NCBI GenBank assembly: GCA_963820525.1
Contig: CAWGAA010000001.1
Span: forward strand, 768,001 to 832,000
From: an uncultured Spirochaetota bacterium
Lineage (GTDB): Bacteria > Spirochaetota > Spirochaetia > SZUA-6 > Fen-1364
DNA length: 64,000 nucleotides
Reading direction: 5' to 3'
Below are positions 1-50,155 of this stretch, in pieces. Position 1 is the stretch's first letter. Each line of letters opens with the position of its first letter. The position numbers were made by a program, and so were the translations under genes. Under the pieces are notes generated by a model. That model ran no database searches. It saw only the letters and a program-made list of their open reading frames with translations, and had not been told where the DNA came from.

Positions 1-127
1 TTAGTTTCAATGCATGGTACGTCACCTTGGCTTATTATCACCGATTACATTCTACGGCTTGGATCAAGCTCTTTCAATTGATTCGCTATATCTTTTCTGC
101 TTTCCTCAACGCCATCATACTGGATGG

Positions 128-244
128 ATATAACATGCTGTTGGAGTTGACCGCCTAGGCTACGCACCGTGACTAGTAGCTACGCGCGGTAAAACCTTTT
201 GTACTTGGATGATTCGGGGCGGCAACTCAACAGCGTCGTTACAT
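128..244 (+). repeat. attC: attC site (representative of about 57)
   Basis: ATATAAC-atgct-GTTGGAGTTG...CAACTCAAC-agcgtc-GTTACAT. Other attC start at 555, 994, 1434, 1827, 2251, 2669, 3062, 4599, 5026, 6554, 6946, 7385, 7777, 8166, 9128, 9551, 10529, 10920, 11688, 12111, 14086, 15037, 16497, 17754 (split), 19920, 21331, 21723, 23718, 24559, 25431, 27372, 27792, 28556, 28952, 30973, 31366, 32084, 34737 (half), 37130 (split), 39269, 40064, 41992, 42388, 42781, 43641, 44525, 45575 (split), 48587, 48978, 49368, 49763, 51244, 52098, 54546, 55445, 56261. Confidence 0.93.
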
Positions 245-554
245 TCAACGCTAAGAATTCTTTTATAGGAAGATTCCCTTTGTTTTTCTATTATAACTCA
301 AGATAAATGAAGACTATTCAATTTAGCTATATTGCATATTTTACCTCGTTGAATTCTTGTCTTACTTTTGCGCGGGCCATGTAAGTTCCCATTGGAACAG
401 CTCGCGCTCATTAGCTGAAAGGGCGTTATTAACCTTTCTGGAATCGTATTCTTTCGCTATTGGTTGAATTCTATCATCAATCAATCAACCTTGTATTTCG
501 TTCATGTCTTAGACTTCTCTGTTGGCCCGCGCATATTGTTTTGTTTCCGCGTAA
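239..554. repeat. Gene-less cassette family B (9 copies), candidate structured ncRNA or regulatory cassette
   Basis: About 310-316 bp with conserved TGCGCGGGCC...GGCCCGCGCA arms and no conserved ORF. Copies at 239, 1935, 2360, 3170 (IS630-split), 4710, 9239, 11795, 19604, 27480. Confidence 0.85.
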
Positions 555-663
555 ATGTAACATTCGGTTGGAGCAGACCGCTTGGGCTACGCATCGTTAC
601 TAATTGCTACGCTTGCTAAAATAATTGTACCTAGATGATTCGGCGCGGCTGCTCAACCGTGCG

Positions 664-993
664 TTATATTCACGCATATTGAAGATTCTTAGATAATTTC
701 AGTATTAGTTCCCTGTATACGTATGCTTGAGTATTGCTATCATAAAGGGCTTTTTTCCTATTTGAGTAATGTTGTGAGATTCACCTCTTTCATTTCTTTT
801 CTTTCCTTTGCGCGGGCCCTGGTAGTCACTAGGTCAAAGCTCGCGCCACTCTTTTGGTGGCCTCTCTTACCTTTTAACCTTGTTTTCTTTCGTTCAAGGT
901 TGAAGTCTAGATTCAACCTGTTGCGGTCAGCTTTTTTCACTCTCTTATAGTTCTCTGCATCGGCCCGCGCTAGTCTCTTATGTTTCCGCGTAA
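664..993. repeat. Gene-less cassette family C (4 copies), related to family B
   Basis: About 330 bp, sharing GCGCGGGCC/CTCGCGC/GGCCCGCGC and TTTCCGCGTAAAT with family B. Copies at 664, 1104, 5135, 7055. Confidence 0.8.
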
Positions 994-1542
994 ATATAAC
1001 AAGTCGTTGAAGCCGACCCCTTGACGTCCGGCTGAAAGTGTAGCAGCGGATTCGTAACAGCCGTCACGGTTGATCTGATGCGGCGGGGCGGCTTAACTCC
1101 ATGTTATATTCACGCATATTGAAGATTCTTAGATAATTTCAGTATTAGTTCCCTGTATACGTATGCTTGAGTATTGCTATCATAAAGGGCTTTTTTCCTA
1201 TTTGAGTAATGTTGTGAGATTCACCTCTTTCATTTCTTTTCTTTCCTTTGCGCGGGCCCTGGTAGTCACTAGGTCAAAGCTCGCGCCACTCTTTTGGTGG
1301 CCTCTCTTACCTTTTAACCTTGTTTTCTTTCGTTCAAGGTTGAAGTCTAGATTCAACCTGTTGCGGTCAGCTTTTTTCACTCTCTTATAGTTCTCTGCAT
1401 CGGCCCGCGCTAGTCTCTTATGTTTCCGCGTAAATATAACAAGTCGTTGCAGCTGACCGCCTAGGCTACGCGTCGTTAGAAATAACTACGCTCGTTCAAG
1501 TATTTGTTCTTTCTTGATTCGGGGCGGCAGCTGAACTCCATG

Positions 1543-1826
1543 TTATCTCCATCTAAATTTATATTGATTATCAATGAAGCACCAAATTATCAATTCAAGG
1601 ATATGGTATAAGACTTTTTTCAATTTCATATTTACTCATGATGGCGTTGGCATTGTTCTGGAAGGATGGCGGTGTTGTACTAGTTTGCCTGCTTGTTTTT
1701 AGGTTCAATACACTGCGCGTCACCTTGGCTTATTGTCACCGATTACATTATAGGGCTCGGATCAAGCTCTTTTAATTGATTCGATTGCTCTTTTTCTGCT
1801 TTCCTCAACGCCATCATACTGGATGG
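1543..1826. repeat. Gene-less cassette family A (18 copies), candidate structured ncRNA or regulatory cassette
   Basis: About 283 bp with conserved ATGATGGCGTTG...CAACGCCATCAT arms and GGAAGGATGGCGGTGTTGTACTA. Copies at 1 (partial), 1543, 2779, 6663, 7494, 7884, 10639, 20031 (IS1595-split), 21440, 28666, 31083, 38985, 42102, 42497, 48695, 49086, 49477, 49872. Confidence 0.87.
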
Positions 1827-3358
1827 AGATAACATGTCGTTGCAGCTGACCGCCCAAGCTACGCGTCGTCACTTAGAACTACGCGCGCTCAGGTATTTCA
1901 TTTTTTTGATACGGGGCGGCAGCTGAACTCCTTGTTACATTCAACGCTAAGAATTCTTTTGTAGGAAGATTCCCTTTGTTTTTCTATTATAACTCAAGAT
2001 AAATGAAGACTATTCAATTTAGCTATATTGCATATTTTACCTCGTTGAATTCTTGTCTTACTTTTGCGCGGGCCATGTAAGTTCCCATTGGAACAGCTCG
2101 CGCTCATTAGCTGAAAGGGCGTTATTAACCTTTCTGGAATCGTATTCTTTCGCTATTGGTTGAATTCTATCATCAATCAATCAACCTTGTATTTCGTTCA
2201 TATCTTAGACTTCTCTGTTGGCCCGCGCATATTGTTTTGTTTCCGCGTAAATGTAACATTCGGTTGGAGCAGACCGCTTGGGCTACGCATCGTTACTAAT
2301 TGCTACGCTTGCTAAAATAATTGTACCTAGATGATTCGGCGCGGCTGCTCAACCGTGCGTTACATTCAACGCTAAGATATATCTTGTGGAATATTCGCTA
2401 TATTCTGCATAGAATCACTCAAGATAAAGAAGACTATACGATTTAGCTTTATATGTTACTTTGTCGAATTCTTGTTTTACTTTTGCGCGGGCCATGTAAG
2501 TTCCCATTGGAACAGCTCGCGCTCATTAGCTTAAAGGGCATTATTACCTTATAAAATCCTTTTATTTCACTATTGGTTGAATTCTATCTTCAATCAACTA
2601 ACCTTATATTTTTATCATATCGTGAAGCTTCTCTGTCGGCCCGCGCATATTGTTCTGTTTCCGCGTAAATGTAACAAGTCGTTGCAGCTGACCGCCTGGG
2701 CTACGCGTCGTTACAAATAATTACGCGTGCTGTAGTATATACACTTTTCCTGATTCGGGGCGGCAGCTGAACTCCATGTTATCTCCATCTAGATTTGTAT
2801 TGATTAGCAATGAAGCAACGTATTATTAATTCAATAATATTGGATAAGACATTTTTCAATAGATTTCTTACCCATGATAGCGTTGTCATTGCTCTGGAAG
2901 GATGGCGGTGTTGTACTAGTTTGCCTGCTTGTTTTTAGTTTCAATACACTGCACGTCACCTTGGCTTGTTGGTAACGATTACATTTTAGGGCTCGGATCA
3001 AGCTCTTTCAATTGATTCAATAGATCTTTTCTGCTTTCCTCAACGCCATCATACTTGATGGAGATAACATGTCGTTGCAGCTGACCGCCCAAGCTACGCG
3101 TCGTCACTTAGAACTACGCGTGCTCAGGTATTTCCTCTTTTTGAGGCGGGGCGGCAGCTGAACTCCTTGTTATATCCACGCTAAAGAAATTCTTTGGGAG
3201 AATGTTTTGCTTGTTCTGTTTTGAATTACTCAAAGCAAATAAAGAATTCTCTTTCACAATCTTGCGGGTTTTACCTTGTTGAATTCTTTTGATACCTTTG
3301 CGCGGGCCATCTACGTTCCTGTTGGAACAGCTCGCGCACGTTAGCTAAAGGGGCATTA

Positions 3359-4469
3359 TACAGAGCGTCTTAAGTAATTGCGCATAATTGCATAATGTGA
3401 TTTTATATAGGAATGAAACAACTGATTATCGCGGATGCCCCCACTATCATCCTTGGACTGCAAGACGAAATCCGTCGTTCACAGGAATCCCGCTATGATC
3501 ATCGACTTCATGGCATTCTGCTCGTAGCACAGGGAATGAGCTGTATTGAGGTTGCGCATTTTCTCGGCGATGCACCACGAACCGTGCAGTATTGGATTCG
3601 CCGCTTCGAGGCGGAAGGACTCGCGGGCATTGTTGAAGGCGATCGAACTGGACGACCCACACGCCTCAAACCTGAACAAATACAAGAAGTGAGCCGCGCT
3701 CTTCGACAACCACCAGCTGCCGCTGGGTTGTCTGGTAACCTATGGGATGGAAAGACACTCTCCGCCTTCATTGTACAGCGCTATAAAGTCAGGTTGGGTG
3801 TACGTCAATGTCAACGCGTCTTTCGACAACTCAACTTCCGACTGCGCAAGCCTCGTCCAGTAATTGCGCGAGCCGATCCGACTCGCCAGACCGAGTATAA
3901 AAAAAACTCAAGGCGTTGATGCTGGATGAACAGATAGATTTGTGGGCGACGGATGAGGTACACTTTCAGCAGTACGGCTCACGATGCCGAATGTGGGTTC
4001 CACCCGAAGTCAAAGATCCGGTACTGCTACATTATCCCGGGCGAAAGAGCGTGGGATACTTCGGTGCCGTTCGTCTGCGCGACGGCAAATTCTTCTTCAA
4101 ACGCGAAGAGGATAGTTTCGACGCGAATACATTCTTCGTGTTCATGAAGCAATTGCGCTTCAGAGCTTCAAAGAGTCAAAGGCGCATCGTCGTGATCACT
4201 GATAATGCCAGATACCACCATGCAAAGCTCCACAAGCAGTGGCGCGAGGAGCACAGCGCATCTTTCATACTGGATTATCTGCCGCCGTATAGTCCCGATC
4301 TGAACCCAATCGAAAGAATGTGGAAGCTCACTAGACGGCTCTGTCTGCATAACAGATACTTCCCTACTATGGGCGATGTCACGTACGCGGTTGAAGACCG
4401 CTTCGCTCAGTGGGAGGCGCCAAATGAAACATTACGTCGTTTATGCGCAATTACTTAGGACGCTATGTA
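3359..4469 (+). mobile_element. IS630-family insertion sequence
   Basis: 29-bp IRs (TACAGAGCGTCTTAAGTAATTGCGCATAA) and a TA duplication. The empty site is visible in the sister cassette at ~19790. Confidence 0.93.
3413..4458 (+). CDS. IS630 transposase (HTH ORF 3413-3919 plus DDE ORF 3916-4458, probable -1 programmed frameshift)
   Basis: DEVHF, DNARYH and LPPYSPDLNPIE motifs. An A8C run at 3899-3907 lies at the junction of the two frames. Confidence 0.9.
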
Positions 4470-5465
4470 TAATTACCTTTTTTAGCATCACTTTCTTTCG
4501 CTTTGCCTGAATTCTATCATCAATCAACTAACCTGATATTTTATCCATATCGTGAAGCTTGTCCTTCGGCCCGCGCATATTGGTCTGTTTCCGCGTAGAT
4601 ATAACATGCTGTTGGAGTTGACCGCCTAGGCGACGCTCCCCTACTTTCAACTACGCGCGGTAATGCATTTTGTGCTTGGATGATTCGGGGCGGCAACTCA
4701 ACAGCGTCGTTACATTCAACGCTAAGAATTCTTTTATAGGAAGATTCCCTTTGTTTTTCTATTATAACTCAAGATAGATTAAGACTATTCAATTTAGCTA
4801 TATTGCATATTTTACCTCGTTGAATTCTTGTCTTACTTTTGCGCGGGCCATGTAAGTTCCCATTGGAGCAGCTCGCGCTAATTAGCTGAAAGGGCGTTAT
4901 TAACCTTTCTGGAATCGTATTCTTTCGCTATTGGTTGAATTCTATCATCAATCAATCAACCTTGTATTTCGTTCATGTCTTAGACTTCTCTGTTGGCCCG
5001 CGCATATTGTTTTGTTTCCGCGTAAATGTAACATTCGGTTGGAGCAGACCGCTTGGGCTACGCATCGTTACTAATTGCTACGCTTGCTAAAATAATTGTA
5101 CCTAGATGATTCGGCGCGGCTGCTCAACCGTGCGTTATATTCACGCATATTGATGATTCTTAGATAATTTCAGTATTAGTTCCCTGTATACGTATGCTTG
5201 AGTATTGCTATCATAAAGGGCTTTTTTCCTATTTGAGTAATGTTGTGAGATTCACCTCTTTCATTTCTTTTCTTTCCTTTGCGCGGGCCCTGGTAGTCAC
5301 TAGCTCAAAGCTCGCGCCACTCTTTTGGTGGCCTCTATTACCTTTTAACCTTGTTTTCTTTCGTTCAAGGTTGAAGTCTAGATTCAACCTGTTGCGGTCA
5401 GCTTTTTTCACTCTCTTATAGTTCTCTGCATCGGCCCGCGCTAGTCTCTTATGTTTCCGCGTAAA

Positions 5466-6551
5466 CCTGAATTCAACCTCGAAGTGCAACGATTCTTATT
5501 TTTCATGATACACCTCCTGGGGCGTTCTGTAGCCGTGCCGTTTTCTAGGCCTTGAGTTTAGGCTAAAGGCAATCTGCTCGCATAGAGCTTGAGTGACATC
5601 CCTCATGCAGGTTTTCTTTGGAAGATACTGACGGATCAAACCGTTTAGGTTCTCGTTGCTGCCTCGCTCCCAGGAATGATAAGGCGTTGCAAAGTAGCAT
5701 TTCAGTTCGGAATGATCCTCCAGGGTCCTGTAGTCATGGAATTCTGTACCGTTGTCCAAGGTGAGTGTCTTGAAGTTGGCTACGTTCTCCCTAATAGCCG
5801 GCAGTGCTGCCTCTGTTACTGAGGCTGCTGTTCTTGAGCTCATTTTCCTTATGATAGCAAATCCCGACTTTCGTTCCACCAGAGTGAGGATGCAGTGATG
5901 AAGGTCCCTGCCCATGACGGTGTCGCCCTCCCAATGACCCAATTCTTTACGAGTTTCAACCTCTGGAGGCCTCGTTGAAATATGGCGTTTTCCTGGGAGA
6001 ATTCCTCTTGAATCCCTTGAATTGTAACGTTTTCGCCGCAGTTTCGGCATGATTCGAAGGTTCTTAAATAGCGTTCCTCCATGTTTCTTATCGTTCAGGA
6101 TGTACTTGTAGATGGTCTCGTGACTGATTGTGAATGATCCATTCTTCTTCTGGTAAGCAGATATCTGTTCAGGGCTCCATTTCTCTTTCAAAAGAACAGT
6201 TACTTGCTGCATTTGTTCTGGGCTGAAGCGCGAACCGCGCCTTTCACGTCGCCGTCTTGCAGTTGAATAGCTTTGGGCAAGCTCAGCTCGGTACCTCAAG
6301 TCATGGTTAGTTCGGTTTCGATGAAGTTCCCTGCTGATCGTGCTAGCTGAGCGACCTAGCTCACGTGCAATGTCAGCTTTAGATCTTCGGCTTACTAAAA
6401 AAGCTGTTATGGTGTATCTTTCTTCTCGAGAGAGTTGGTGATAGTTATTCATGTATGAATCCCCTTTCTTGGCGGAAAATGGAGGCATACAATAATATCT
6501 CAGCTCTCTCATTTTTAATCCATATCGTTGCGCTTACTATTTGAACCTGCG
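5466..6551 (-). mobile_element. IS30-family element copy 1, at attC R''
   Basis: Ends CCTGAATTCAA...TTGAACCTGCG; flanks AAA/AAA. Confidence 0.93.
5496..6452 (-). CDS. IS30 transposase
   Basis: GHWEGDTV, TLDNGTEF and WERGSNENLNGLIRQYLPK motifs; start placed after an SD-like AGAAAGGGG. Confidence 0.93.
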   Translation of the reverse strand: MNNYHQLSREERYTITAFLVSRRSKADIARELGRSASTISRELHRNRTNHDLRYRAELAQSYSTARRRRERRGSRFSPEQMQQVTVLLKEKWSPEQISAYQKKNGSFTISHETIYKYILNDKKHGGTLFKNLRIMPKLRRKRYNSRDSRGILPGKRHISTRPPEVETRKELGHWEGDTVMGRDLHHCILTLVERKSGFAIIRKMSSRTAASVTEAALPAIRENVANFKTLTLDNGTEFHDYRTLEDHSELKCYFATPYHSWERGSNENLNGLIRQYLPKKTCMRDVTQALCEQIAFSLNSRPRKRHGYRTPQEVYHEK

Positions 6552-8299
6552 AAATATAACAAGTCGTTGCAGCTGACCGCCTAGGCTACGCGTCGTTAGA
6601 AATAACTACGCTCGTTCAAGTATTTGTTCTTTCTTGATTCGGGGCGGCAGCTGAACTCCATGTTATATCCAATCAAATTTATGGTGATTAGCAATGAATT
6701 AAAGAATTATTAATTCAATAATATTGGAGAAGATGTTTTTCAATAGCTTCCTTTCACATGATGGCGTTGGCATTTGGCGGGAAGGTTGGCGGCGTTGTAC
6801 TACATTGCCTGCTTATCTTTAGCTTCAATTCATGGCACGTCACTTTGGCTTGTTATCACCGATTACATTCAACGGCTCAGATCAAGCTCTTTCAAATGAT
6901 TCGATAGATCTTTTCTGCTTTCCTCAACGCCATCATACCTGATGGATATAACATGCGGTTGGAGTTGTCCGCCTATGTCACGCTTCGTTACATTTTGTTT
7001 CATTTGCTAGGGTTCCTTCGGTTGATGATTCGGGGCGGCAACTCAACAGCGTCGTTATATTCACGCATATTGAAGATTCTTAGATAATTTCAGTATTAGT
7101 TCCCTGTATACGTATGCTTGAGTATTGCTATCCTAAAGGGCTTTTTTCCTATTTGAGTAATGTTGTGAGATTCACCTCTTTCATTTCTTTTCTTTCCTTT
7201 GCGCGGGCCCTGGTAGTCACTAGGTAAAAGCTCGCGCCACTCTTTTGGTGGCCTCTATTACCTTTTAACCTTGTTTTCTTTCGTTCAAGGTTGAAGTCTA
7301 GATTCAACCTGTTGCGGTCAGCTTTTTTCACTCTCTTATAGTTCTCTGCATCGGCCCGCGCTAGTCTCTTATGTTTCCGCGTAAATATAACAAGTCGTTG
7401 CAGCTGACCGCCTAGGCTACGCGTCGTTAGAAATAACTACGCTCGTTCAAGTATTTGTTCTTTCTTGATTCGGGGCGGCAGCTGAACTCCATGTTATCTC
7501 TATCTAGATTTATATTGGTTAGCAATGAAGTTAAGAATTATTAATTCAATAATCTTGGATAAGACGTTTTTCACTAGCTTGCTTTCCCATGATGGCGTTG
7601 GCTTTGCTCTGGAAGGATGGCGGTGTTGTACTAGGGTGCATGCTTATTTTTAGTTTCAATACTCTGCACATCACCTTGGCTTATTATCACCGATTGCATT
7701 CTACGGCTCGTATCAAGCTCTTTCAATTGATTCGCTAGATCTTTTCTGCTTTCCGCAACGCCATCATACTGGATAGAGATAACATGTCGTTGCAGCTGAC
7801 CGCCTAGGATACGCGTCATCACTGATAATTACGCGCGCTCAAGTATTTGTTTTTCCTATGCGGGGCGGCAGCTGAACTCTGTGTTATATCCAATCAAATT
7901 TATGATGATTAGAAATGATGTAAAGAATTATAATTCAATAATATTGGATAGGAGGTTTTTCAATAGATTGCTTTCCCATGATGGCGTTGACATTGCTCTG
8001 GAAGGATGGCGGTGTTGTACTACTTTTCATGCTTGTCTTTAGTTTCAATGCATGGTACGTCACCTTGGCTTATTATCACCGATTACATTCTACGGCTTGG
8101 ATCAAGCTCTTTCAATTGATTCGCTATATCTTTTCTGCTTTCCTCAACGCCATCATACTGGATGGATATAACATGCTGTTGGAGTTGACCGCCTAGGCTA
8201 CGCTTCGTTGCCATTGACTACGCGCGTTGAAGCAATTGTACTTGGATGATTCGGGGCGGCAACTCAACAGCGTCGTTAGCCTGCTTTAAGGATGAGAAA

Positions 8300-12989: not shown

Positions 12990-12997
12990 ATTTGCCG

Positions 12998-37115: not shown

Positions 37116-37160
37116 TGTTAAGATCCGCCGCATAACATGCTGTTGGAGTTGACCGCCTAG

Positions 37161-40903: not shown

Positions 40904-41989
40904 CCTGAATTCAACCTCGAAGTGCAACGATTCTTATTTTTCATGATACACCTCCTGGGGCGTTCTGTAGCCGTGCCGTTTTCTAGGCCTTGAGTTTAGG
41001 CTAAAGGCAATCTGCTCGCATAGAGCTTGAGTGACATCCCTCATGCAGGTTTTCTTTGGAAGATACTGACGGATCAAACCGTTTAGGTTCTCGTTGCTGC
41101 CTCGCTCCCAGGAATGATAAGGCGTTGCAAAGTAGCATTTCAGTTCGGAATGATCCTCCAGGGTCCTGTAGTCATGGAATTCTGTACCGTTGTCCAAGGT
41201 GAGTGTCTTGAAGTTGGCTACGTTCTCCCTAATAGCCGGCAGTGCTGCCTCTGTTACTGAGGCTGCTGTTCTTGAGCTCATTTTCCTTATGATAGCAAAT
41301 CCCGACTTTCGTTCCACCAGAGTGAGGATGCAGTGATGAAGGTCCCTGCCCATGACGGTGTCGCCCTCCCAATGACCCAATTCTTTACGAGTTTCAACCT
41401 CTGGAGGCCTCGTTGAAATATGGCGTTTTCCTGGGAGAATTCCTCTTGAATCCCTTGAATTGTAACGTTTTCGCCGCAGTTTCGGCATGATTCGAAGGTT
41501 CTTAAATAGCGTTCCTCCATGTTTCTTATCGTTCAGGATGTACTTGTAGATGGTCTCGTGACTGATTGTGAATGATCCATTCTTCTTCTGGTAAGCAGAT
41601 ATCTGTTCAGGGCTCCATTTCTCTTTCAAAAGAACAGTTACTTGCTGCATTTGTTCTGGGCTGAAGCGCGAACCGCGCCTTTCACGTCGCCGTCTTGCAG
41701 TTGAATAGCTTTGGGCAAGCTCAGCTCGGTACCTCAAGTCATGGTTAGTTCGGTTTCGATGAAGTTCCCTGCTGATCGTGCTAGCTGAGCGACCTAGCTC
41801 ACGTGCAATGTCAGCTTTAGATCTTCGGCTTACTAAAAAAGCTGTTATGGTGTATCTTTCTTCTCGAGAGAGTTGGTGATAGTTATTCATGTATGAATCC
41901 CCTTTCTTGGCGGAAAATGGAGGCATACAATAATATCTCAGCTCTCTCATTTTTAATCCATATCGTTGCGCTTACTATTTGAACCTGCG
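40904..41989 (-). mobile_element. IS30 copy 6, at attC R''
   Basis: Flanks GGG/GGG. Confidence 0.93.
40934..41890 (-). CDS. IS30 transposase
   Basis: Protein identical to copy 1. Confidence 0.93.
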   Translation of the reverse strand: MNNYHQLSREERYTITAFLVSRRSKADIARELGRSASTISRELHRNRTNHDLRYRAELAQSYSTARRRRERRGSRFSPEQMQQVTVLLKEKWSPEQISAYQKKNGSFTISHETIYKYILNDKKHGGTLFKNLRIMPKLRRKRYNSRDSRGILPGKRHISTRPPEVETRKELGHWEGDTVMGRDLHHCILTLVERKSGFAIIRKMSSRTAASVTEAALPAIRENVANFKTLTLDNGTEFHDYRTLEDHSELKCYFATPYHSWERGSNENLNGLIRQYLPKKTCMRDVTQALCEQIAFSLNSRPRKRHGYRTPQEVYHEK

Positions 41990-42904
41990 GGGTGTAACAT
42001 GCTGTTGGAGTTGACCGCCTAGGCTACGCTTCGTTACCAATAACTACGCGCGTTGAAGCCTTTGTACTTGTATGATTCGGGGCGGCAACTCAACAGCGTC
42101 GTTATATCCAATCTAGATTTATATTGATTATCGAATAGGCAACGAATTAGTAATTCAATAAAAAGAGATAATACGTGTTTCAATAGCTTGTTTAACCATG
42201 ATGGCGTTGGCATTGCTCTGGAAGGATGGCGGTGTTGTACTAATGTTGCTTGCTTGCTCTTAGTTTCAATACACTGCACGTCACCGTGGCTTAATGGTCA
42301 ACGATTTCATTATAGGGCTCGGATCAAGCTCTTTCTCTTGAAACAACAACTCTTTTCTGTTGTCCTCAACGCCATCATACTGGATGGATATAACATGCTG
42401 TTGGAGTTGTCCGCCTAGGCTACGCGTCGTTACTTATAGCTACGTTTGCTAGGGTTCCTTCGGTTGCTGATTCGGGGCGGCAACTCAACAGCGTCGTTAT
42501 CTCCATCTAGATTTATATTGATTAGCAAATAGGCGACAAATTCTTAATTCAAGAATATTGGATAAGACGTTTTTCAATAGCTTGCTTTCCCATGATGGCG
42601 TTGGCATTGAGCGGGAAGGATGGCGGTGTTGTACTAGTTTGCCTGCTTGTTTTTAGGTTCAATACACTGCTCGTCACCTTGGCTTATTGTCACCGATTAC
42701 ACTATAGGGCTCGGATCAAGTTCTTTTAATTGATTCGATTGCTCTTTTTCTGCTTTCCTCAACGCCATCATACTGGATGTAGATAACATGTCGTTGCAGC
42801 TGACCGCCCAAGCTACGCATCGTCACTTAAAACTACGCGCGCTCAGGTATTTCTTTTTTTGATGCGGGGCGGCAGCTGAACTCCTCGTTATCTCTCCCTA
42901 AGAC

Positions 42905-42933
42905 TTGACTGTTGTGCATATTTTATGCATCAT
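42905..42933 (+). promoter_or_regulatory. sigma70-type promoter of vapBC with palindromic operator
   Basis: TTGACT-17bp-CATCAT; TGCATA-ttt-TATGCA palindrome in the spacer. Confidence 0.6.
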
Positions 42934-42940
42934 TGTGCAT

Positions 42941-43141
42941 ATGAGAACTACTCTTAACATCGACCCTACTCTCCTTAGAGAGGCAACAAGACTAACAGGG
43001 ATATCCGAAAAGACTTCCCTTGTCCGTATGGGCCTTCAGGCCCTGATCTCCAAAGAAAGTTCTAAGCGTTTGGCTGAGCTTGGCGGAACTGAAAAGAGTC
43101 TTCGTTCTATCCCAAGAAGACGACCTAAGAAGACAGCATGA
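42941..43141 (+). CDS. vapB: VapB family antitoxin
   Basis: MRTTLNID..LL.EA motif; overlaps the PIN gene. Confidence 0.88.
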   Translation: MRTTLNIDPTLLREATRLTGISEKTSLVRMGLQALISKESSKRLAELGGTEKSLRSIPRRRPKKTA

Positions 43142-43494
43142 TCCTAGTTGATACTTCTGTTTGGATAGATCATTTTCGAAATGACAATGCAGAGCTGCGC
43201 AAGTTATTAAACAACAATGAAGTTATGACTCACCCTTTTATTATTGGTGAACTTGCTTGCGGACTCATACAAAATAGATCAGAAATACTTAACCTTCTGG
43301 CCGAGTTGCCTGCTGTTATAACGGCAGATCATCAGGAAGTGCTAAAGCTCATCGAATCAAAGAAACTCTATGGTTCTGGAATTGGATTGATTGATGCACA
43401 TTTAATTGCATCAGCGCTAATAACCAAAGTTGGAATCTTCACTCTTGATAAACCTTTGGCAAAAGCAACTTCATATCTTGGAATAAACCAATAA
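43138..43494 (+). CDS. vapC: VapC PIN-domain toxin
   Basis: ILVDTSVWID, GEL, IDAHL and TLDK motifs. Confidence 0.92.
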   Translation: MILVDTSVWIDHFRNDNAELRKLLNNNEVMTHPFIIGELACGLIQNRSEILNLLAELPAVITADHQEVLKLIESKKLYGSGIGLIDAHLIASALITKVGIFTLDKPLAKATSYLGINQ

Positions 43495-43939
43495 ATTTCA
43501 TAGTTATCATAGGATGTTTCATTCAACTGTTGAGAATCTCTATATTCAGTATCCTCATAGAAGGTTATATTGACCCGTTTGGAATAAGTCATGCTTGGAT
43601 ATCAGTTTTCCAGCACATAAAACGAATTAATGAAAGGGAGAGATAACATGCTGTTGGAGTTGACCCCTTAGCCTACGTTTTGAAAGTGTAGCATGTGTTG
43701 CTAAACCGCCACTACCCTGCTTCGGGCGGCGGGGCAACTCAACAGCGTTGTTATCTCCCCCAAGGGAGCATTCAAGTGCGATTGTCAAGACCTCGCACAA
43801 TTAGCGATTTCGGCATCTTGCACCTGTCGACAGGCTGACCAGTCTGCAGATTGGCGATTTTAATTTGCCTATGTTCTTACTGACCCAAATCGATTGAAGT
43901 ACGCTTAGGCATTGCACCTTAGCGTTCAGGGAGAATCCG

Positions 43940-44467
43940 ATGAAGTTTGATCTGACCCTAAACTGGCAGTCCGTGTTGACCCTTGCCGCCTTGCTTTCAT
44001 CATGGACAATTCCCCTTTTGCTCGACTTTCTTCGGAGACGAAGGCAGTCGGATATTGTCCGCAAGAGTATCTCTTTATATCTTGATTCACTCGAGATCAA
44101 AGCTAGGCTTTGGCTGCGCTTCTATTTTGACGGGGACGTAAAACTTCCCAAAGGAAGGAGATCGTTTGAATACACAAACAAGCAAAATCACGACGCGTTG
44201 GAGGACCTGTTCCGTTCAAGTGATCTCGGCAACTTGGAGAAGGAGGAGTTGCTGAAATTCGTCCAGTACTTTAAGGCCTCACAGGAAATGAGGTCCCAGG
44301 AAGACTTCAAAAAATACGTTTCCCGGATAGGTGACGAATCGCTTAGGCAAGTGTTTCCGCAGGGCCCCCACTTTCAGAATATACTAAGGACTACCGCCAA
44401 GGCAATGTCTGCTTCTCATAGGTTGGCCGCTCGACAAGCCGGGGCCACAGTTCCTCGTCGCAGGTAG
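43940..44467 (+). CDS. Hypothetical protein with N-terminal TM helix
   Basis: SD GGGAG; 175-aa ORF ending before attC. Confidence 0.65.
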   Translation: MKFDLTLNWQSVLTLAALLSSWTIPLLLDFLRRRRQSDIVRKSISLYLDSLEIKARLWLRFYFDGDVKLPKGRRSFEYTNKQNHDALEDLFRSSDLGNLEKEELLKFVQYFKASQEMRSQEDFKKYVSRIGDESLRQVFPQGPHFQNILRTTAKAMSASHRLAARQAGATVPRRR

Positions 44468-44830
44468 CGCATTCATAGATGCCGCGATTCTATCGATCAT
44501 CGTGGGTCAATTACGAAATGCGGGAGATAACATGCTGTTGGAGTTGACCGCCTAGGCTATGCTTCGTAACCAATAGCTACGCGCATTAAAGCATTTGTAC
44601 TTGGATGATTCGGGGCGGCAACTCAACAGCGTCGTTATGACGCCTCAAGATTTGGCCGATTGAGGCAAACGGACTGGAATGCCTCGGGGAAGAGGGTCAG
44701 GCGTCCATGCCTGACCCTCTTCCCCTCATTGGTATCATTCGAGACCTCTATCTCCGAACTATAATCAAATATACCGAATCGCCTTGTGAGGGCTCCTTGA
44801 CTATACATACCAATAATGGTATGTTTCGAC

Positions 44831-45163
44831 ATGCAATATGAAGTCGTATTGTTGGAGCCTGCAACGGACTTCCTACGCAACCTCGAGGGGAAGCTGCAAG
44901 CAAAAGCGTTCCGATCAATCGAACTTCTAGGGCATTTTGGAACACAATTGATCATGCCGCACTCCAAAAAGCTCAGCGGATACGATCTGTGGGAATTGCG
45001 GGTTCGACATGCAGGCATGATCTGCCGACTATTCTATTTCCACGATCGGGATAGGATCTTTGTTGTGACTTCTGGATATGTTAAGAAGAGTGACAGGACT
45101 AATCCAAAGGAGATAAAGAGGGCACTCCGGCTTAAGATGGAGCACCTTGGAGGGACCACATAA
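44831..45163 (+). CDS. RelE/ParE (Gp49-like/HigB) toxin
   Basis: PHSKKL..LWELR..RLFYF..KKS..T..EI..A pattern. Confidence 0.88.
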   Translation: MQYEVVLLEPATDFLRNLEGKLQAKAFRSIELLGHFGTQLIMPHSKKLSGYDLWELRVRHAGMICRLFYFHDRDRIFVVTSGYVKKSDRTNPKEIKRALRLKMEHLGGTT

Positions 45164-45456
45164 TGAAGCAGACTCGATATGAGGATTTGCTCAACCGTCA
45201 ATTGAAGAACCCTCAGTTCCGGAAAGAATATGAAGCGTTAGAGGGTGAGTTCACCCTGGCAAAAGAAATAATCGCACTTCGTATCAAGAATAGACTTACG
45301 CAGAAACAACTCGCACAGCAAATCGGAACCTCCCAGCCCGCCATTGCTCGGATTGAATCTGGTAGCTACCGGAATGTCTCGCTCTCATTTCTTAGGCGGA
45401 TCGCAGATGCACTTGGAGCCGTGCCGGAAATACATCTGAAAAAGAAAGGTGCATGA
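45163..45456 (+). CDS. XRE-HTH antitoxin (HigA-like)
   Basis: LTQKQLAQQIGTSQPAIARIESG. Confidence 0.9.
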   Translation: MKQTRYEDLLNRQLKNPQFRKEYEALEGEFTLAKEIIALRIKNRLTQKQLAQQIGTSQPAIARIESGSYRNVSLSFLRRIADALGAVPEIHLKKKGA

Positions 45457-45642
45457 GCGCTATTACAACCGTGAGCTGAATAGCTTTCCACGCCCTCGCC
45501 ATCCCTGGCTCGGGCGCATGTCCTGATAGATAGCGGAAGCGCTGACAATTTGTAGACGATCCATATTGGAGTCGTCATAACATGCTGTTGGAGTTGACCG
45601 CCTAGGCTATGCGTCGCTTAGCTACAGCTTGTCGGGTAATTG

Positions 45643-46029
45643 TTAGCTCTCCGGAGCCCGCTTACCGTGGATACGCGGGGTTGGCGTCTTTCTCGCGGGG
45701 GACGGTAGCTTTTTAAGAAGGCGATCGGTGACGCGCAACGACATCCTCTCCATTTGAGCGATGATTCTGTCCAGTTCGCGGCCGGTGGCAACCCAGACGG
45801 CGAGAAGGTCGGCCTGTTCGCGCGTCAGGCGGACTGTGACGGTTTTTCCATCCACCTTGCGGGTCCACTGGTAGTAGGGACCGTGAAGGCGGGGCGGAGA
45901 AGCTTGGCAGGCGCAGCCGGGCTTGCCGCAGGCCATGAAGCGTTTCAGCAAGGTGCCACGGCGGAAATAGCCGACTCGGCTGAGGGCGCGCTGGAGCTGC
46001 TGGTAGTTTTGCGGAAGATCGGTTTTCAT
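45643..46029 (-). CDS. DUF6788-like accessory protein of the IS
   Basis: RGTL...CGKPGCAC...HGPYYQWT..GKT.T motif. Confidence 0.75.
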   Translation of the reverse strand: MKTDLPQNYQQLQRALSRVGYFRRGTLLKRFMACGKPGCACQASPPRLHGPYYQWTRKVDGKTVTVRLTREQADLLAVWVATGRELDRIIAQMERMSLRVTDRLLKKLPSPARKTPTPRIHGKRAPES

Positions 46030-46040
46030 AGAAATATATC

Positions 46041-46068
46041 TTGACAGAAAACTGTCTACAGTTATAAT
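46041..46068 (+). promoter_or_regulatory. Consensus sigma70 promoter inside the IS
   Basis: TTGACA-16bp-TATAAT. Confidence 0.65.
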
Positions 46069-46236
46069 ACTGTTAGATATGTTGCCCGTCAAGCTTCCCC
46101 GGCGTTGGTTTTTCTCCCGGATCCTCGCTTCGATGTGCGTGTGCGTCTTTCTCGGCCTGGGCATCTTGATCTTCTCCAGCGCCCCCTCCATGGCAGCCGC
46201 CGATAGAGCAATCGTTCCCCAGGAGGTCCCTCGTCC

Positions 46237-47628
46237 ATGCAAACCACTTCTGCCAGTGCCAAGCGCCAACCCGCTCTGATTCCCAGGTCTATGCGCCCGA
46301 CCATCTCCATCGCGGAGGACCACAGGCTGGTCCAAATGACCGACACCCTGGACTGGACAGAAATGGAGGAGCAAGCCCAGCAGATACGATCCGCCAAGCT
46401 CAAGAACGCCGCTGGGCGGCCGCCGCACCTGCGCGCCTTGCTGGGAGCTATGCTGCTGATGGCCACCCGAAAGCTGACATACCGGGAGGCCGAGGACTTG
46501 ATCTGCTACTACGCCCCAGCGCGCTACTTGTGCGGGCTGACCGAAACGGAGTGGACCCCGGACTTCACCACCATCCAGGACTTCACCGAACTGATGGGCG
46601 AGCAGGGGATCAAGCTCATCAATCAATGCGTGGTGCAAATGGCGGTGAAACAAAAGTTGGCAGATCCCAAGACACTGGTGGCCGACACCACAGCGCAGGA
46701 AGCGGCGATCCCCTATCCCAACGAGATGGGGCTCATGGCCGGCTTTCTGACCTCGGTGGCTGCCGCAACCCGAAAAGTTGGCCGAGCGCTGAAGGGATTC
46801 GTGCAGGAGACGGTGAGTCAATTCGAGGCGGCCAAGAAGAAGGGGCGAGAGTACCGCCTGTTCGCCAAGACCAAGGAGAGCAAGGATCGGGTGATGGGGC
46901 AGATGATCGCCATCGTCAAGAAGCTCAACGAGCATCTGAGCAAGGCGCTGGGCGCCCCTGCCGCACAGTGGGAAAAGCTACGCAAGCATGCAATTGTGGC
47001 CAAAAGCAAGCTGGTTCAGTTGCAGGAAACGATGAGCAAACTGATCCCGCAGATCCGCTACTGGATTCGCACGGGCTGCGTGGCCAGCGGCAAGATCATC
47101 AGCCTGCATATCCCGCAGCTCTACAGCATCGTACGCGGCAAAGTGGGCAAATCGGTGGAGTTTGGGCTGAGCTGGGGCATCAGGCGACTGGCGGGGGGGT
47201 ACCTGCTGGCCACGCTGGCCCCGAATCGCCGCGAGTTACAGGACACGAAGTTCGCGGTGCGAGCGGTCAAAGACCACATCGCGCTCTTTGGCAAGGCGCC
47301 GCTGGCTTATGCCTACGACCGTGGTGGATACAGCGCGGAGAATGTCTCCACCTTGAAGAAGTTGGGGGTCAAGGATGTGGGACTGGCCCCCCGTGGACGT
47401 ACGCAGTGGTCGGTAAGCGGGCCGGTGCGCGACCGGCTGGTCAGAGAGAGGGCAATGGTGGAGGCGGGAATCGGCACCATCAAGAGCCCGAGATACGGGT
47501 TCAATCGTCCAGCTGCTCGTTCGGAGGCCATGATGGGAGCGTGTGGGCAGCGCGCTGTGTTGGGATTCAACACCAACAAGCTGATCCGCGAACTTGCCGG
47601 GCGAAAGGGGATGACGCTGAACGGCTAA
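46237..47628 (+). CDS. DDE transposase (IS5/ISNCY-like)
   Basis: GRPP, PDFTTI, ADTT, GKVGKSVEFG, YDRGG and RAMVEAGIG motifs. Confidence 0.85.
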   Translation: MQTTSASAKRQPALIPRSMRPTISIAEDHRLVQMTDTLDWTEMEEQAQQIRSAKLKNAAGRPPHLRALLGAMLLMATRKLTYREAEDLICYYAPARYLCGLTETEWTPDFTTIQDFTELMGEQGIKLINQCVVQMAVKQKLADPKTLVADTTAQEAAIPYPNEMGLMAGFLTSVAAATRKVGRALKGFVQETVSQFEAAKKKGREYRLFAKTKESKDRVMGQMIAIVKKLNEHLSKALGAPAAQWEKLRKHAIVAKSKLVQLQETMSKLIPQIRYWIRTGCVASGKIISLHIPQLYSIVRGKVGKSVEFGLSWGIRRLAGGYLLATLAPNRRELQDTKFAVRAVKDHIALFGKAPLAYAYDRGGYSAENVSTLKKLGVKDVGLAPRGRTQWSVSGPVRDRLVRERAMVEAGIGTIKSPRYGFNRPAARSEAMMGACGQRAVLGFNTNKLIRELAGRKGMTLNG

Positions 47629-47970
47629 CGGAATACGGGACGCCTGGTCACGAGACTGACAGTGCACCAGCGGGGTACGCACACAAGACACACAGCGCAC
47701 CGGAAGGCGCGACATAGGTCCGCGGCCCGTCGAACACCGAGCCAACGGGCGCCTGAATTACCCGACAAACTGTAGCTATAGCTACGCTCATTGAAGCCTT
47801 TGTACTTGGATGATTCGGGGCGGCAACTCAACAGCGTCGTTATCTTGCCATAGTAAATACCCAGTTGTGCATTTTTCATGCCATTGCATTTGTTTTAAGA
47901 ATTCATCACAACATTAAGCATGATTACCATATGTTGACACTGTGCGCACAATGGGGTATATTCCTTATTG

Positions 47971-48249
47971 ATGCAGTTCGCCTTTGACAAGGAGAAGAAT
48001 GACCTTCTTTATAAACGGCGTGGGGTAACTTTTCCCATGGTAATTGAGGCGATTGCAGATAAGGGAATTCTATTGAATTTTGATCACCCAAATCAATTGA
48101 AATATCCAAACCAAAAGGTACTTGTTGTTGATTTGGAAGGATATGCATACTGCGTACCTTATATTATTCAAGGAACTACTTGGTTCTTGAAAACGATCTA
48201 TCCAAGCAGACGTTTCAAGTACCTAATCGAAGGAGAAACCAATGGATAG
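47971..48249 (+). CDS. BrnT-like toxin
   Basis: F.FD.EKN..L...RGVTF...FLKTIYPSRR. Confidence 0.8.
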   Translation: MQFAFDKEKNDLLYKRRGVTFPMVIEAIADKGILLNFDHPNQLKYPNQKVLVVDLEGYAYCVPYIIQGTTWFLKTIYPSRRFKYLIEGETNG

Positions 48250-48544
48250 ATATAATCCGAAATACATTGACCGTGAAGAGAAAGATCTCATGCAAGACAT
48301 TGACAAAATAGATCTCCGTAAGGTTAGAAAGCCGACCCAAAAGGTACAAGGACAACTCAGGAGAGCTGCAAAGAGGCACCTAGAAAAAGAATTGAAAATG
48401 AATATTAGAATTGACCCCTATGAATTATCAAAGATTAAAGAAAAGGCAGAAATGGAAGGATTAAAATACCAAAGCCTCGTAAAGAGCGTACTACACAAAT
48501 ACATTACTGGCCAATTGATTGAAAAAGGGAAAAAAGCTGTATAG
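48242..48544 (+). CDS. RHH/CopG-like antitoxin
   Basis: MNIRI..IKEKA..EGL.YQSLV.SVLHKY. Confidence 0.8.
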   Translation: MDRYNPKYIDREEKDLMQDIDKIDLRKVRKPTQKVQGQLRRAAKRHLEKELKMNIRIDPYELSKIKEKAEMEGLKYQSLVKSVLHKYITGQLIEKGKKAV

Positions 48545-50155
48545 GAATTATGGCTAAAATCTTATTATTAAAATAGATAAATGGCAAGATAACATGCGGT
48601 TGGAGTTGTCCGCCTAGGCTACGTTCATCAACAGTAAGCTAAGTTTGCTAGGGTCCTTCGGTTGCTGATTCGGGGCGGCAACTCAACCGCGTCGTTATCT
48701 CCATCTAGATTTATATTGATTAGCAATGAAGTTAAGAATTATTAATTAAATAATCTTGGATAAGACGCTTTTCAATTTCATGTTTGCCCATGATGGCGTT
48801 GGCCTTTCTCTGGAAGGATGGCGGTGTTGTACTAGGTTGCACGCTTGTTTTTAGTTTCAATGCATGGCACGTCACCTTGGCTTATTATCACCGATTACAT
48901 TCAACGGCTCTAATCAAGCTCTTTCAATTGATTCGCTAGATCTTTTCTGCTTTCCTCAACGCCATCATACTGGATGGAGATAACATGTCGTTGCAGCTGA
49001 CCGCCCAAGCTACGCGTCGTCACTTGAAACTATGCGTGCTCAGCTATTTCCTTTTTTTGAGGCGGGGCGGCAGCTGAACTCCTTGTTATATCCATCTAGA
49101 TTTATATTGATTAGCGAATAGACAACGAATTATTAATTCAATAATAGAAGATAAGACGCTTTTCAATAGCTTTTTGCCCATGATGGCGTTGACATTGCTC
49201 CGTAAGGATGGCGGTGTTGTACTACATTGCTTGCTTTTCTTTAGTTTCAATACATGGCACGTCACCTCGTCTTGCCAACACCGATTGCATTCAACGGCTC
49301 GGATCAAGCTCCTTCAATTGATTCGATAGACCTTTTCTGCTTTCCTCAACGCCATCATACTGGATGGATATAACATGCTGTTGGAGTTGTCCGCCTAGGC
49401 TACGCGTCGTTACTTATAGCTACGTTTCCTAGGGTTCCTTCGGTTGCTGATTCGGGGCGGCAACTCAACAGCGTCGTTATATCCAATCTAGATTTATATT
49501 GATTATCGAATAGGCAACGAATTAGTAATTCAATAAAAAGAGATAATACGTGTTTCAATAGCTTGTTTAACCATGATGGCGTTGGCATTGCTCTGGAAGG
49601 ATGGCGGTGTTGTACTAATGTTGCTTGCTTGCTCTTAGTTTCAATACACTGCACGTCACCGTGGCTTAATGGTCAACGATTTCATTATAGGGCTCGGATC
49701 AAGCTCTTTCTCTTGAAACAACAACTCTTTTCTGTTGTCCTCAACGCCATCATACTGGATGGATATAACATGCTGTTGGAGTTGTCCGCCTAGGCTACGC
49801 GTCGTTACTTATAGCTACGTTTGCTAGGGTTCCTTCGGTTGCTGATTCGGGGCGGCAACTCAACAGCGTCGTTATCTCCATCTAGATTTATATTGATTAG
49901 CAATGAAGTTAAGAATTATTAATTAAATAATCTTGGATAAGACGCTTTTCAATTTCATGTTTGCCCATGATGGCGTTGGCCTTTCTCTGGAAGGATGGCG
50001 GTGTTGTACTAGGTTGCACGCTTGTTTTTAGTTTCAATGCATGGCACGTCACCTTGGCTTATTATCACCGATTACATTCAACGGCTCGAATCAAGCTCTT
50101 TCAATTGATTCGCTAGATCTTTTCTGCTTTCCTCAACGCCATCATACTGGATGGA

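Follow-up and report, generated by a model that had tools for sequence, protein, structure and literature searches.

Three paralogous families of non-coding cassettes multiplied in the chromosomal integron of an uncultured spirochaete

The locus raises the question of why more than half of a long integron cassette array consists of cassettes without genes, and by what means these cassettes have become so numerous. The window, i.e. the whole stretch of 64,000 nucleotides that was analysed (positions 768,001 to 832,000 of contig CAWGAA010000001.1 of an uncultured Spirochaetota bacterium), contains at 1..56373 on the + strand the distal portion of an array of cassettes that belongs to a sedentary chromosomal integron. 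In full, this array extends over approximately 683.5-824.4 kb of the contig and starts at attI, 150 bp from the integrase gene intI (682092-683030, - strand), the product of which scores 410 bits against TIGR02249 (cut-off 265). The intI gene is divergent from the array, whereas in Treponema integrons it has the same direction as the cassettes. An nhmmer search with a profile of attC sites taken from this array gave 59 attC matches in the window, all on the + strand and the last at 56264-56373; 54 of the 59 start at or before 49764, and several of these 54 are halves of sites split by insertion sequences. The whole array possesses ca. 176 attC sites (177 matches to the left-arm pattern, the last of which is spurious).

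The gene-less cassettes belong to three families, which we call the 390, 420 and 440 families after their approximate lengths in bp. BLAST searches with one representative per family gave 18, 9 and 4 copies in the window, exactly the numbers reported for families A, B and C in an initial annotation of this DNA. Its estimate that about 31 of 57 cassettes are gene-less is correct in the first number and somewhat high in the second, as positions 1-50155 hold ca. 52 cassettes. In the whole array the 390, 420 and 440 families account for 57, 29 and 5 of 168 delimited cassettes, plus the first cassette at attI, which gives 92 of 169 (54%). The other 77 cassettes are 52 singletons and 11 families of 2-4 copies. 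Lengths including attC are indeed uniform within a family, with ranges of 388-397, 418-427 and 439-440 bp over the whole array.

All copies in the window are encoded on the + strand. The representative of the 390 family is located at 1543..1934, with inverted-repeat arms at 1638-1649 and 1806-1817 and an R'' box that, with its extension, ends at 1833. Further copies are present at 2779..3169, 6663..7054, 7494..7883, 7884..8275, 10639..11028, 21440..21831, 28666..29060, 31083..31473, 42497..42887, 48695..49085 and 49086..49476, and another, at 38985..39376, follows an attC site split by an insertion sequence. Two copies, at 42102..42496 and 49477..49871, are among five identical ones in the array. 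The remaining three are incomplete or interrupted: the copy at 1..238 is cut by the window start, that at 20031..21439 carries an IS1595-type insertion (family sequence at 20031-20066 and 21089-21338), and that at 49872..50155 is truncated by an IS30-type element at 50156. The 420 family is represented by the cassette at 239..663, with the arms GCGCGGGCC at 370-378 and GGCCCGCGC at 524-532 and an extended -10-like motif on the - strand at 468-476. Its other copies are found at 1935..2359, 4710..5134, 9239..9661, 11795..12221 (approximate ends) and 27480..27901, together with a member of a divergent subfamily at 2360..2778, a copy at 3170..4709 with an IS630-type element inside (transposase ORFs 3413-3919 and 3916-4458) and a 5'-truncated copy at 19659..20030 in which family positions 55-325 are present. 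Copies of the 440 family lie at 664..1103, 1104..1542 and 7055..7493, and at 5135..6662 with an IS30-type element inside at 5466-6551.

The three families are non-coding. When ORFs were listed copy by copy, none was common to all copies of a family, in agreement with the initial statement that reading frames are not conserved. Many copies contain chance ORFs of 40-80 codons; those of 51-80 codons, also present in many copies, exceed the strict limit of Boucher et al. (2006), whose definition excludes ORFs above 150 bp and any match to a protein database. A 43-codon frame (MK..LEGWRCCTSLPACF) that had been seen by eye in two copies was dropped, as it exists only in cassettes c121, c124 and c130. 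The families lack 3-nt periodicity and have indels of 1-2 nt. In each of the six frames the synonymous fraction lies at 0.19-0.28, and none shows a synonymous excess. Homologous copies are conserved over their whole length without a pattern of synonymous-site variability, another criterion used by Boucher et al. (2006). Pfam searches with seven of the longest ORFs gave nothing at E <= 0.09; three weak matches (E 0.095-0.16) are far below the cut-offs. The earlier view that these cassettes are not decayed genes is borne out by the missing synonymous excess, the short indels and the lack of a significant Pfam match to these seven ORFs.

Each copy was also said to have its own attC site, and every copy of the families does end in one, of 93-100 nt from left arm to R'. 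The copies possess R'' (..AAC) and R' (GTT..) cores and imperfect inner repeats that fold into a hairpin, and they lie in a co-oriented array beside attI and intI. Within the families the attC stem has undergone compensatory changes, for example G-C (25) versus C-G (18) and U-A (25) versus C-G (18). The mean bottom-strand folding energies of the attC sites are -30.3, -28.0 and -31.2 kcal/mol for the 390, 420 and 440 families versus -30.9 kcal/mol for the other cassettes, and the idea that the three families have specially stable attC sites was rejected, the stability being the same. A pairing of 12-13 bp between R' and R'' is general to most cassettes of the array and not peculiar to the three families. 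In the 390 family, the 12-bp pairing between the cassette 5' end and the R'' extension, with one mismatch allowed, is found in 42 of 57 copies, and the two segments covary: one pair is A-U in 22 and C-G in 15 of the 43 unique sequences. The attC stem of the circular form is under selection in these cassettes.

The families have been amplified in the array, and single cassettes have been shuffled within it. There are 16 groups of fully identical copies, and for most members the neighbours differ on both sides, in line with the shuffling and diversification described initially; five identical 395-bp copies of the 390 family, for example, occur in five different contexts. The many identical copies point to recent activity. 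The first cassette at attI is a copy of the 390 family that differs at one position from this group of five. On a metagenome contig of 1 kb, a 390 copy is flanked by a PIN-toxin cassette on one side and a 440 copy on the other, an order that is absent from this array. Some duplicates are located within small segmental duplications, e.g. c46-c47 and c51-c52, and ORF cassettes have been duplicated too, less often. Family copies form tandem runs of up to six. Gene-less cassettes adjoin each other in 51 cases versus 48.8 expected; the adjacency is random, and a preferential placement of these cassettes was rejected.

Each family contains a near-invariant long-range inverted repeat, of 12 bp in the 390 family and 9 bp in the 420 family, with arms 150-160 bp apart. 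It lies upstream of the extended R'' box, at a distance of 2 nt in the 390 family and 16 nt in the 420 family. The 440 family is distantly related to the 420 family, with which it has the blocks GCGCGGGCC, GCTCGCGC, GGCCCGCGC and TTTCCGCGTAAAT in common. The families have 37-41% GC in a genome of 60% GC. The claimed T-richness of the + strand proved real and specific to them, the AT skew being -0.18, -0.23 and -0.39 in the three families versus +0.007 in the contents of other cassettes. The initial picture of invariant GC-rich motifs separated by variable AT-rich linkers holds in part: the arms of the inverted repeat are near-invariant; consensus positions with G or C vary more than those with A or T (mean column entropy in the 390 family 0.46 vs 0.33, in the 420 family 0.40 vs 0.31); and certain AT-rich blocks, e.g. 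GAATTCTATCATCAATCAA in the 420 family, are conserved as strongly. In the 390 family, evolution is slowest over the 30 nt next to attC, where 12 columns show 1 parsimony step (P ~0.01 by permutation). Against column permutation, the only significantly slow region is that of the 3' arm in the 390 family; the 420 family gives no significant result (P 0.12). A total of 519 parsimony steps over 271 columns indicates heavy mosaicism, and gene conversion among copies could mimic purifying selection. When a copy with both flanking attC sites was folded as single-stranded DNA, the internal stem was kept in the MFE and centroid structures; as the arms never covary, the pairing itself is unproven.

Tentatively, and with slightly less than even confidence, we regard the three families as non-coding cassettes that are mobilised by the integrase and have increased in number in the array, either as selfish elements or kept for a role in cis. 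The mobile unit would be the complete cassette, consisting of the body and its own attC. IntI would recombine the folded hairpins of the flanking attC sites and release a circle, in which the first 12-13 bases of the cassette would pair with the extended R'' box, and attI or a different attC could then take up the circle. As replication resolves the recombination of integrons, one daughter chromosome may keep the original cassette and also gain the circle, with a net yield of one extra copy. Short cassettes of zero expression cost could spread in this way as selfish passengers, or they could be tolerated by or useful to the array. The inverted repeat may act on single-stranded DNA, where it would enclose most of the body in a folded domain, draw the flanking attC sites nearer and stop the body from interfering with attC folding. 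The repeats may thereby aid recombination. A pure recombination role leaves the conserved AT-rich blocks (GAATTCTATCATCAATCAA) and the excess of T over A unexplained, which hints at a strand-specific function, e.g. in transcription. A further-reaching proposal, on the unlikely side in our judgement, is that the cassettes are non-autonomous integron parasites, the equivalents of MITEs in the cassette world, with an attC-adjacent inverted-repeat domain that raises their own excision and re-insertion, and/or antisense promoters whose transcription across the array keeps 140 kb of foreign, low-GC cassettes silent.

The chief rival lead is provided by antisense promoter-like motifs predicted in the families. 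The cassettes might be cis-regulatory modules, either promoters, mainly antisense to the array, or terminators, which would set or silence the expression of neighbours far from Pc; we consider this somewhat unlikely. The - strand of the families is purine-rich. An extended -10-like motif, TGATAGAAT, is present on the - strand in 20 of the 22 unique sequences of the 420 family, in one of the best-conserved blocks, and it is lost in the related 440 family. On the same strand, 23 of the 43 unique 390-family sequences have a site resembling TTGAAA-N17-TAGAAT/TATAAT, whereas no promoter-like site is conserved on the sense strand of this family. Precedents are known: Blanco et al. (2024, NAR, PMC11014356), who assayed 29 individual cassettes, describe promoter activity in gene-less cassettes of Vibrionaceae superintegrons, including an antisense promoter that lowered the expression of the upstream cassette, and cite promoter activity in two ORF-less cassettes of Treponema. 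Both sets of cassettes are gene-less, belong to a large sedentary integron and have promoter-like motifs that include the antisense strand; amplified families and inverted repeats are not a subject of the part of that report used here. Promoters were measured in the Vibrionaceae cassettes, whereas the sites described here are predicted, are mainly antisense and are overall no better than chance: positions 1-3400 contain 7 promoter-like sites against 7.3 expected. Furthermore, the gene-less cassettes have no preference for ORF-cassette neighbours, and a promoter role does not easily account for the long tandem runs, which reach six copies, and leaves the inverted repeats unexplained.

The initial annotation had read the families as structured non-coding RNAs, and genes for trans-acting sRNAs or antisense RNAs are in our view an improbable explanation. 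Folding predictions give a closing stem and internal hairpins for either strand. The closing stem is common to the 420 and 440 families, as is a hairpin right after its 5' arm, which is formed from different sequence (GTTCC/GGAAC versus CCTGGT/ACTAGG). There is also a precedent in the trans-acting sRNA-Xcc1 of Xanthomonas campestris, a functional RNA encoded by an ORF-less integron cassette (Chen et al. 2011, as cited in PMC6557892), whereas the families described here match no Rfam family. Folding z-scores of the cassette bodies are modest (-0.5 to -2.7); those of the 420 family (-2.1 to -2.7) and of the + strand of the 440 family (-2.3) are compatible with RNA structure, and those of the 390 family are just -1.7 (+) and -0.5 (-). 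The covariation analysis and Rfam search that had been suggested at the outset did not support this reading. RNAalifold gave no support for internal stems, either in the 390 and 420 families, each folded on both strands, or in a joint 420+440 alignment, and among 43, 22 and 4 unique sequences no pair of a family-specific stem was changed on both sides, all such pairs being located in the attC hairpin or the R'/R'' stem. Changes within the family-specific stems are single-sided, disruptive and found in single copies, and since the arms are near-invariant, the covariation test of the internal helices has little power. Rfam gave no match at gathering score over the window; with E up to 5, positions 1-3200 gave only four snoRNA matches, which is chance level. 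A conserved intrinsic terminator is lacking, homologues are absent from the other genomes scanned, and 58 copies of a single sRNA gene would be unusual.

Quite improbable is the proposal that the conserved palindromic blocks are sites for a protein, e.g. IntI, a nucleoid protein or a regulator, with the cassettes serving as architectural or titrating DNA. The near-invariant arms 150-160 bp apart would suit such a role, as would additional palindrome-like blocks, namely ATTATTAATTCAATAAT in the 390 family and repeats centred on GAATTC in the 420 family, and the concentration of the 12-nt arm of the 390 family, with 125 occurrences in the array and 5 in the rest of the genome. This arm loosely resembles the inner (L) box of attC (GCGTTGGCATTG vs CTGTTGGAGTTG), but the likeness extends to 8-9 of 12 positions and could be due to chance, the internal stem has no extrahelical bases, and no candidate protein was identified. 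An identity of the 390-family arms as pseudo-attC sites was rejected on the same grounds, i.e. the weak likeness and the lack of bulged bases.

Decayed protein genes or MITE-like transposon remnants, for which the chance ORFs of 40-80 codons and the superficial similarity of the internal inverted repeats to terminal ones could be cited, are largely refuted and extremely improbable, given that no frame has a synonymous excess, none of the seven ORFs searched, which are among the longest, has a significant Pfam match, lengths are uniform, the families were amplified as whole cassettes, target-site duplications were not found beside the repeats and BLAST and a motif search of the genome revealed no copy outside the array. 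An origin from insertion sequence ends was likewise rejected: the left end of the IS30-type element resembles the 420 and 440 families over 7-9 nt, possibly by chance, with no target duplication and no dispersed copy.

The interpretation as multiplied non-coding cassettes places the families beside known systems, and the suggestion that they form an undescribed system was overstated in view of the Vibrio precedents (PMC1382264, PMC11014356). Highly paralogous families of non-coding cassettes were described in Vibrio by Boucher et al. (2006, BMC Evol Biol, PMC1382264), who already proposed both selfish and promoter or RNA readings; in V. vulnificus CMCP6 such families make up to 49% of the array, one of them with 45 copies. 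As in that report, the families described here have their own attC sites, lack a coding signal, are highly paralogous within one array and occupy a large share of it, with 92 of 169 cassettes (54%) slightly above the Vibrio maximum of 49%. Unlike the Vibrio families, they belong to a host of a different phylum, a spirochaete, and have no sequence similarity to them. There are here three families, two of them distantly related. Their T skew is strong and their long-range inverted repeats are near-invariant, which may or may not apply to the Vibrio families. ORF-less cassettes are also known from spirochaete integrons, since Tansirichaiya et al. (2019, Sci Rep, PMC6557892) found that in Treponema-type integrons of the oral metagenome they constitute 20% of the recovered cassettes (13 of 63), some with promoter activity. 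As paralogous non-coding families have been known from Vibrio since 2006, the present ones are of a known kind in a new phylum; this array is a well-documented instance of a known phenomenon and not a new RNA system.

The function of gene-less cassettes has been open since their first description, and the evidence is almost all from Vibrio. The array described here is an independent system in another phylum in which non-coding cassettes are in the majority, and it offers simple testable features, namely the long-range inverted repeats of 12 and 9 bp beside attC and the antisense promoter-like motifs. An effect of the repeats on recombination rates would show that cassettes are able to evolve as selfish replicators; activity of the antisense motifs would reveal a means of silencing large arrays.

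Homologues of the Vibrio families occur in close relatives only, according to the part of the report cited (PMC1382264). For the families described here, the search of related genomes proposed in the initial annotation gave no BLAST homologue in 40 relatives, and all BLAST matches in the own genome fall within the array. The large-collection scans were confined to the 390 family. A BLAST search of 400 genomes from the phylum, in which two candidates per genome were scored, and which is therefore of limited sensitivity, gave only two borderline matches of 57-63 nt (E ~1e-3), and the exact arm pattern had one chance match in a species-genome collection, within a hydrolase gene of a Gemmatimonadaceae MAG. 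In the collections scanned, the 1-kb metagenome contig is the only place outside the array where the families were found. Of 24 members of the taxonomic family, 20 have a match to intI at E <= 1e-30, and the array of one relative contains a different, apparently non-coding cassette in 4 copies, which is built without a similar architecture.

An integron integrase gene (410 bits against TIGR02249, cut-off 265) lies on the opposite strand immediately upstream of a cassette array, with about 150 bp between the gene and the first cassette. The array comprises 177 co-oriented matches to the attC left-arm pattern from C1:683,776 to 824,842 on the main contig, the last of which is not an attC. With a profile derived from attC sites of this array, 59 sites were identified in the window, every one on the + strand and the last at 56264-56373. 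In view of this co-oriented attC array and the adjoining integrase, the window (C1:768001-832000) holds 56 kb of a very large sedentary chromosomal integron, at its distal end. Ordinary cargo is found on the + strand of the larger cassettes (among it toxin-antitoxin pairs, an epimerase, a GNAT and ankyrin repeats), and insertion sequences are numerous. Cutting the array at G|TT of each R' box delimited 168 cassettes, and clustering of their contents gave three large groups, named here by approximate length: the 390 family (57 members, 388-397 bp long, with 43 different sequences), the 420 family (29 members, 418-427 bp, 22 different sequences) and the 440 family (5 members, 439-440 bp, 4 different sequences). 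The first-position cassette at attI, outside the 168-cassette set, is a further 390-bp copy. The families are complete cassettes and the most amplified units of the array, of which they make up 54% (92 of 169 delimited cassettes). BLAST of one representative per family against the window, with IS-split and truncated copies included, returned exactly the 18, 9 and 4 gene-less copies counted in the initial annotation; its end coordinate of 50155 is the point where an insertion sequence cuts the last copy, and its total of 57 cassettes is slightly high, about 52 being counted in 1..50155. The 440 family is distantly related to the 420 family (214-230 nt aligned by BLAST at 67-68% identity), and the two share the blocks TTTGCGCGGGCC, AGCTCGCGC, GGCCCGCGC and TTTCCGCGTAAAT.

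We tentatively interpret the families as integrase-mobilised non-coding cassettes that multiplied within this array, the best-supported reading, to which we give somewhat less than an even chance. The families move as single units. Fully identical copies form sixteen groups, most members of which have different neighbours on both sides; five identical 395-bp copies, for example, occupy five different contexts, and a few duplicates belong to two-cassette segmental duplications. New cassette insertions go in at attI, and the cassette found next to attI differs at one position from these five copies. The metagenome contig L033 (1,011 bp), picked up by a search with an exact attC pattern, has a PIN-toxin cassette followed by a 390 copy and the start of a 440 copy, an order absent from this genome. 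Furthermore, the 5' end of the cassette is complementary to the R'' box over 12-13 bp, and in the 390 family the first bases covary with the R'' extension (one pair is A-U in 22 of the 43 sequences and C-G in 15). This pairing exists only in the excised circle, so selection acts on the attC stem in its circular form. The long pairing (7 bp is usual) occurs in most cassettes of the array, ORF-bearing ones included, and the attC sites of the three families do not exceed the others in stability; both features therefore belong to the integron as a whole rather than to the families. Amplification would be driven by the recombination efficiency of the cassettes themselves, that is, selfishly, rather than by benefit to the host, and the long inverted repeat in each cassette body would fold the single-stranded body into a closed domain beside attC.

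The families are confined to this lineage. Within the genome BLAST located them only inside this array, and none was found at a small cluster of attC-pattern matches (C1:1956616-1967383) adjoined by a second integron integrase gene (C1:1954228-1955157, 449 bits against TIGR02249). No BLAST match was obtained in any of 40 relatives; in 400 genomes sampled across the phylum, with two candidates per genome scored, the only matches were two borderline ones of some 60 nt. When one genome per species was scanned for exact occurrences of the 390 family's two arms, a single chance match came up, inside a hydrolase gene, and L033 is the only outside sequence found with these families. Integron integrase matches at E <= 1e-30 are present in 20 of 24 relatives from the bacterium's family. 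One relative's integron contig (L035, G005:C6) resembles this array in the general type of its attC sites and has its own four-copy cassette (1587-2152, 5116-5680, 14007-14566 and 16448-17012), which has a body of about 350 bp, 1-nt indels and no shared ORF; it is apparently non-coding and shows no sequence relationship to the three families. The GC content is 60.4% for the genome, 44.5% for the contents of other cassettes and 37-41% for the three families; a lower-GC lineage may have been the birthplace of the cassettes or of the whole integron.

What a pure recombination account chiefly leaves unexplained is the excess of T over A, together with the conservation of AT-rich blocks. The + strand was noted to be T-rich, and this proved specific to the families, with AT skews of -0.18, -0.23 and -0.39 as compared to +0.007 in the contents of all other cassettes; their - strand is purine-rich. 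The families might be cis-regulatory modules, especially antisense promoters, a possible but rather unlikely explanation. In a consensus scan of positions 1-3400, promoter-like sites were no commoner than in shuffles (7 vs 7.3), and promoter leads were sought among sites conserved in alignment position. An extended -10-like motif (TGATAGAAT) is present on the - strand in 20 of the 22 unique 420-family sequences, within one of the best-conserved blocks of the family, and is not retained in the 440 family. A site of the TTGAAA-N17-TAGAAT type occurs on the - strand in 23 of the 43 unique 390-family sequences, and no conserved sense-strand promoter-like site was found in that family. Together with the purine-rich - strand, these motifs make antisense transcription a candidate, as a lead and no more. 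PMC11014356 describes promoter activity in gene-less cassettes of Vibrionaceae, in most cases in the sense direction and in some in the antisense direction.

That the cassettes are structured RNA genes is clearly unlikely. Each family has an inverted repeat, ATGATGGCGTTG and CAACGCCATCAT separated by about 160 nt in the 390 family and GCGCGGGCC and GGCCCGCGC separated by about 150 nt in the 420 and 440 families; the resulting stems are the dominant element of RNA and DNA fold predictions for either strand. The cassette bodies have modest fold z-scores, with values for the + and - strand of -1.7 and -0.5 (390 family), -2.1 and -2.7 (420 family) and -2.3 and -1.4 (440 family). Among unique sequences, all pairs with both partners changed belong to the attC hairpin or to the stem between 5' end and R'' box, and the family-specific stems show only single-sided disruptions, each in single copies, and no compensatory pair; the covariation test has low power on these stems because the arms are invariant. 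Rfam gave no match at gathering score in the whole window and only chance-level snoRNA matches at E up to 5 in 1-3200. One remaining hint of structure is a predicted hairpin directly after the 5' arm, which the 420 and 440 families share in position but build from different sequences; a structure, if present, might act in DNA as readily as in RNA. The suspected undescribed integron-borne RNA system is not supported by the evidence gathered.

A reading of the families as protein-binding or architectural DNA we consider very unlikely. The initial annotation described invariant GC-rich motifs and variable AT-rich linkers; the inverted-repeat arms are indeed near-invariant, but mean variability is higher at G/C than at A/T positions, and some blocks rich in A and T match the arms in conservation. 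The slowest-evolving part of the 390 family abuts attC, and only its 3' arm region is significantly slow as compared to column permutation (P about 0.01); no significant slowness was found in the 420 family (P 0.12). The three families are not coding: as initially proposed, no ORF is found in every copy of any family, variation shows no three-base periodicity, indels are of 1-2 nt, and the would-be synonymous fraction of observed substitutions is 0.19-0.28 in each of six frames, which is chance level. Pfam gave no significant match for seven of the longest ORFs, and the many frames of 40-80 codons on the - strand are expected because this strand is T-poor and hence has few stop codons. An origin as decayed genes or transposon remnants is hardly credible.

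Non-coding cassettes of Vibrio are described in PMC1382264 as making up 6-49% of an array, as tending to be paralogous (with a 45-copy family in V. vulnificus CMCP6), as having homologues in close relatives only, and as proposed selfish elements or carriers of promoters or RNAs. ORF-less cassettes in oral Treponema-type integrons are reported in PMC6557892, which also cites an integron-encoded sRNA in Xanthomonas. The present families resemble the Vibrio cassettes in being paralogous and abundant in the array, whereas their share of 54% exceeds the range given there. In view of earlier descriptions of gene-less or non-coding cassettes, for example by Boucher et al. 2006 and Blanco et al. 2024, the case therefore belongs to a known kind and is not a new kind of system; new are the phylum, the array share, the clear inverted-repeat architecture and the strand skew.

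Canonical attC sites have G and T as extra bases on the recombined bottom strand. In a two-arm alignment made by eye for attC sites throughout the array (for example window 129-241), the unpaired extra bases on the 5' arm of the + strand are G and T, so that the bottom strand would carry C and A; the spacer geometry (5 vs 6 nt) appears canonical. In a predicted single-stranded DNA fold of the - strand of window 1430-1950, the two flanking attC sites, when they share a subtype, base-pair with one another over the intervening cassette instead of each forming its own hairpin.

The attC sites are also occupied by insertion sequences. A 1,086-bp IS30-family element, with a transposase of 338 amino acids (HTH_38 and rve domains), is present at window positions 5466-6551, 12998-14083, 22630-23715, 26284-27369, 29885-30970, 40904-41989, 50156-51241 and 53458-54543, and a ninth copy lies 5.9 kb before the window. 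All nine copies in the genome are inside the integron array and in one orientation. The insertion point within the attC is identical for every copy, and a 3-bp duplication precedes the C of the R'' AAC by 7-9 nt. The duplications match at seven of the nine copies; the mismatched flanks of the other two suggest IS-mediated rearrangement. IS1111-attC elements are the known comparison for attC targeting, and the present element appears to be an attC-specific IS of another family. Two identical, inverted DDE_Tnp_1_4 (IS4-type) transposase genes with 487-aa products (34996-36459 on the - strand and 37210-38673 on the + strand) flank a 183-aa ORF within 34738-38987. With attC half-sites at 34738-34779, 37131-37171 and 38902-38987, the arrangement looks like repeated insertion of one IS at attC sites or like a composite element, and 58790-60253 carries a related copy.
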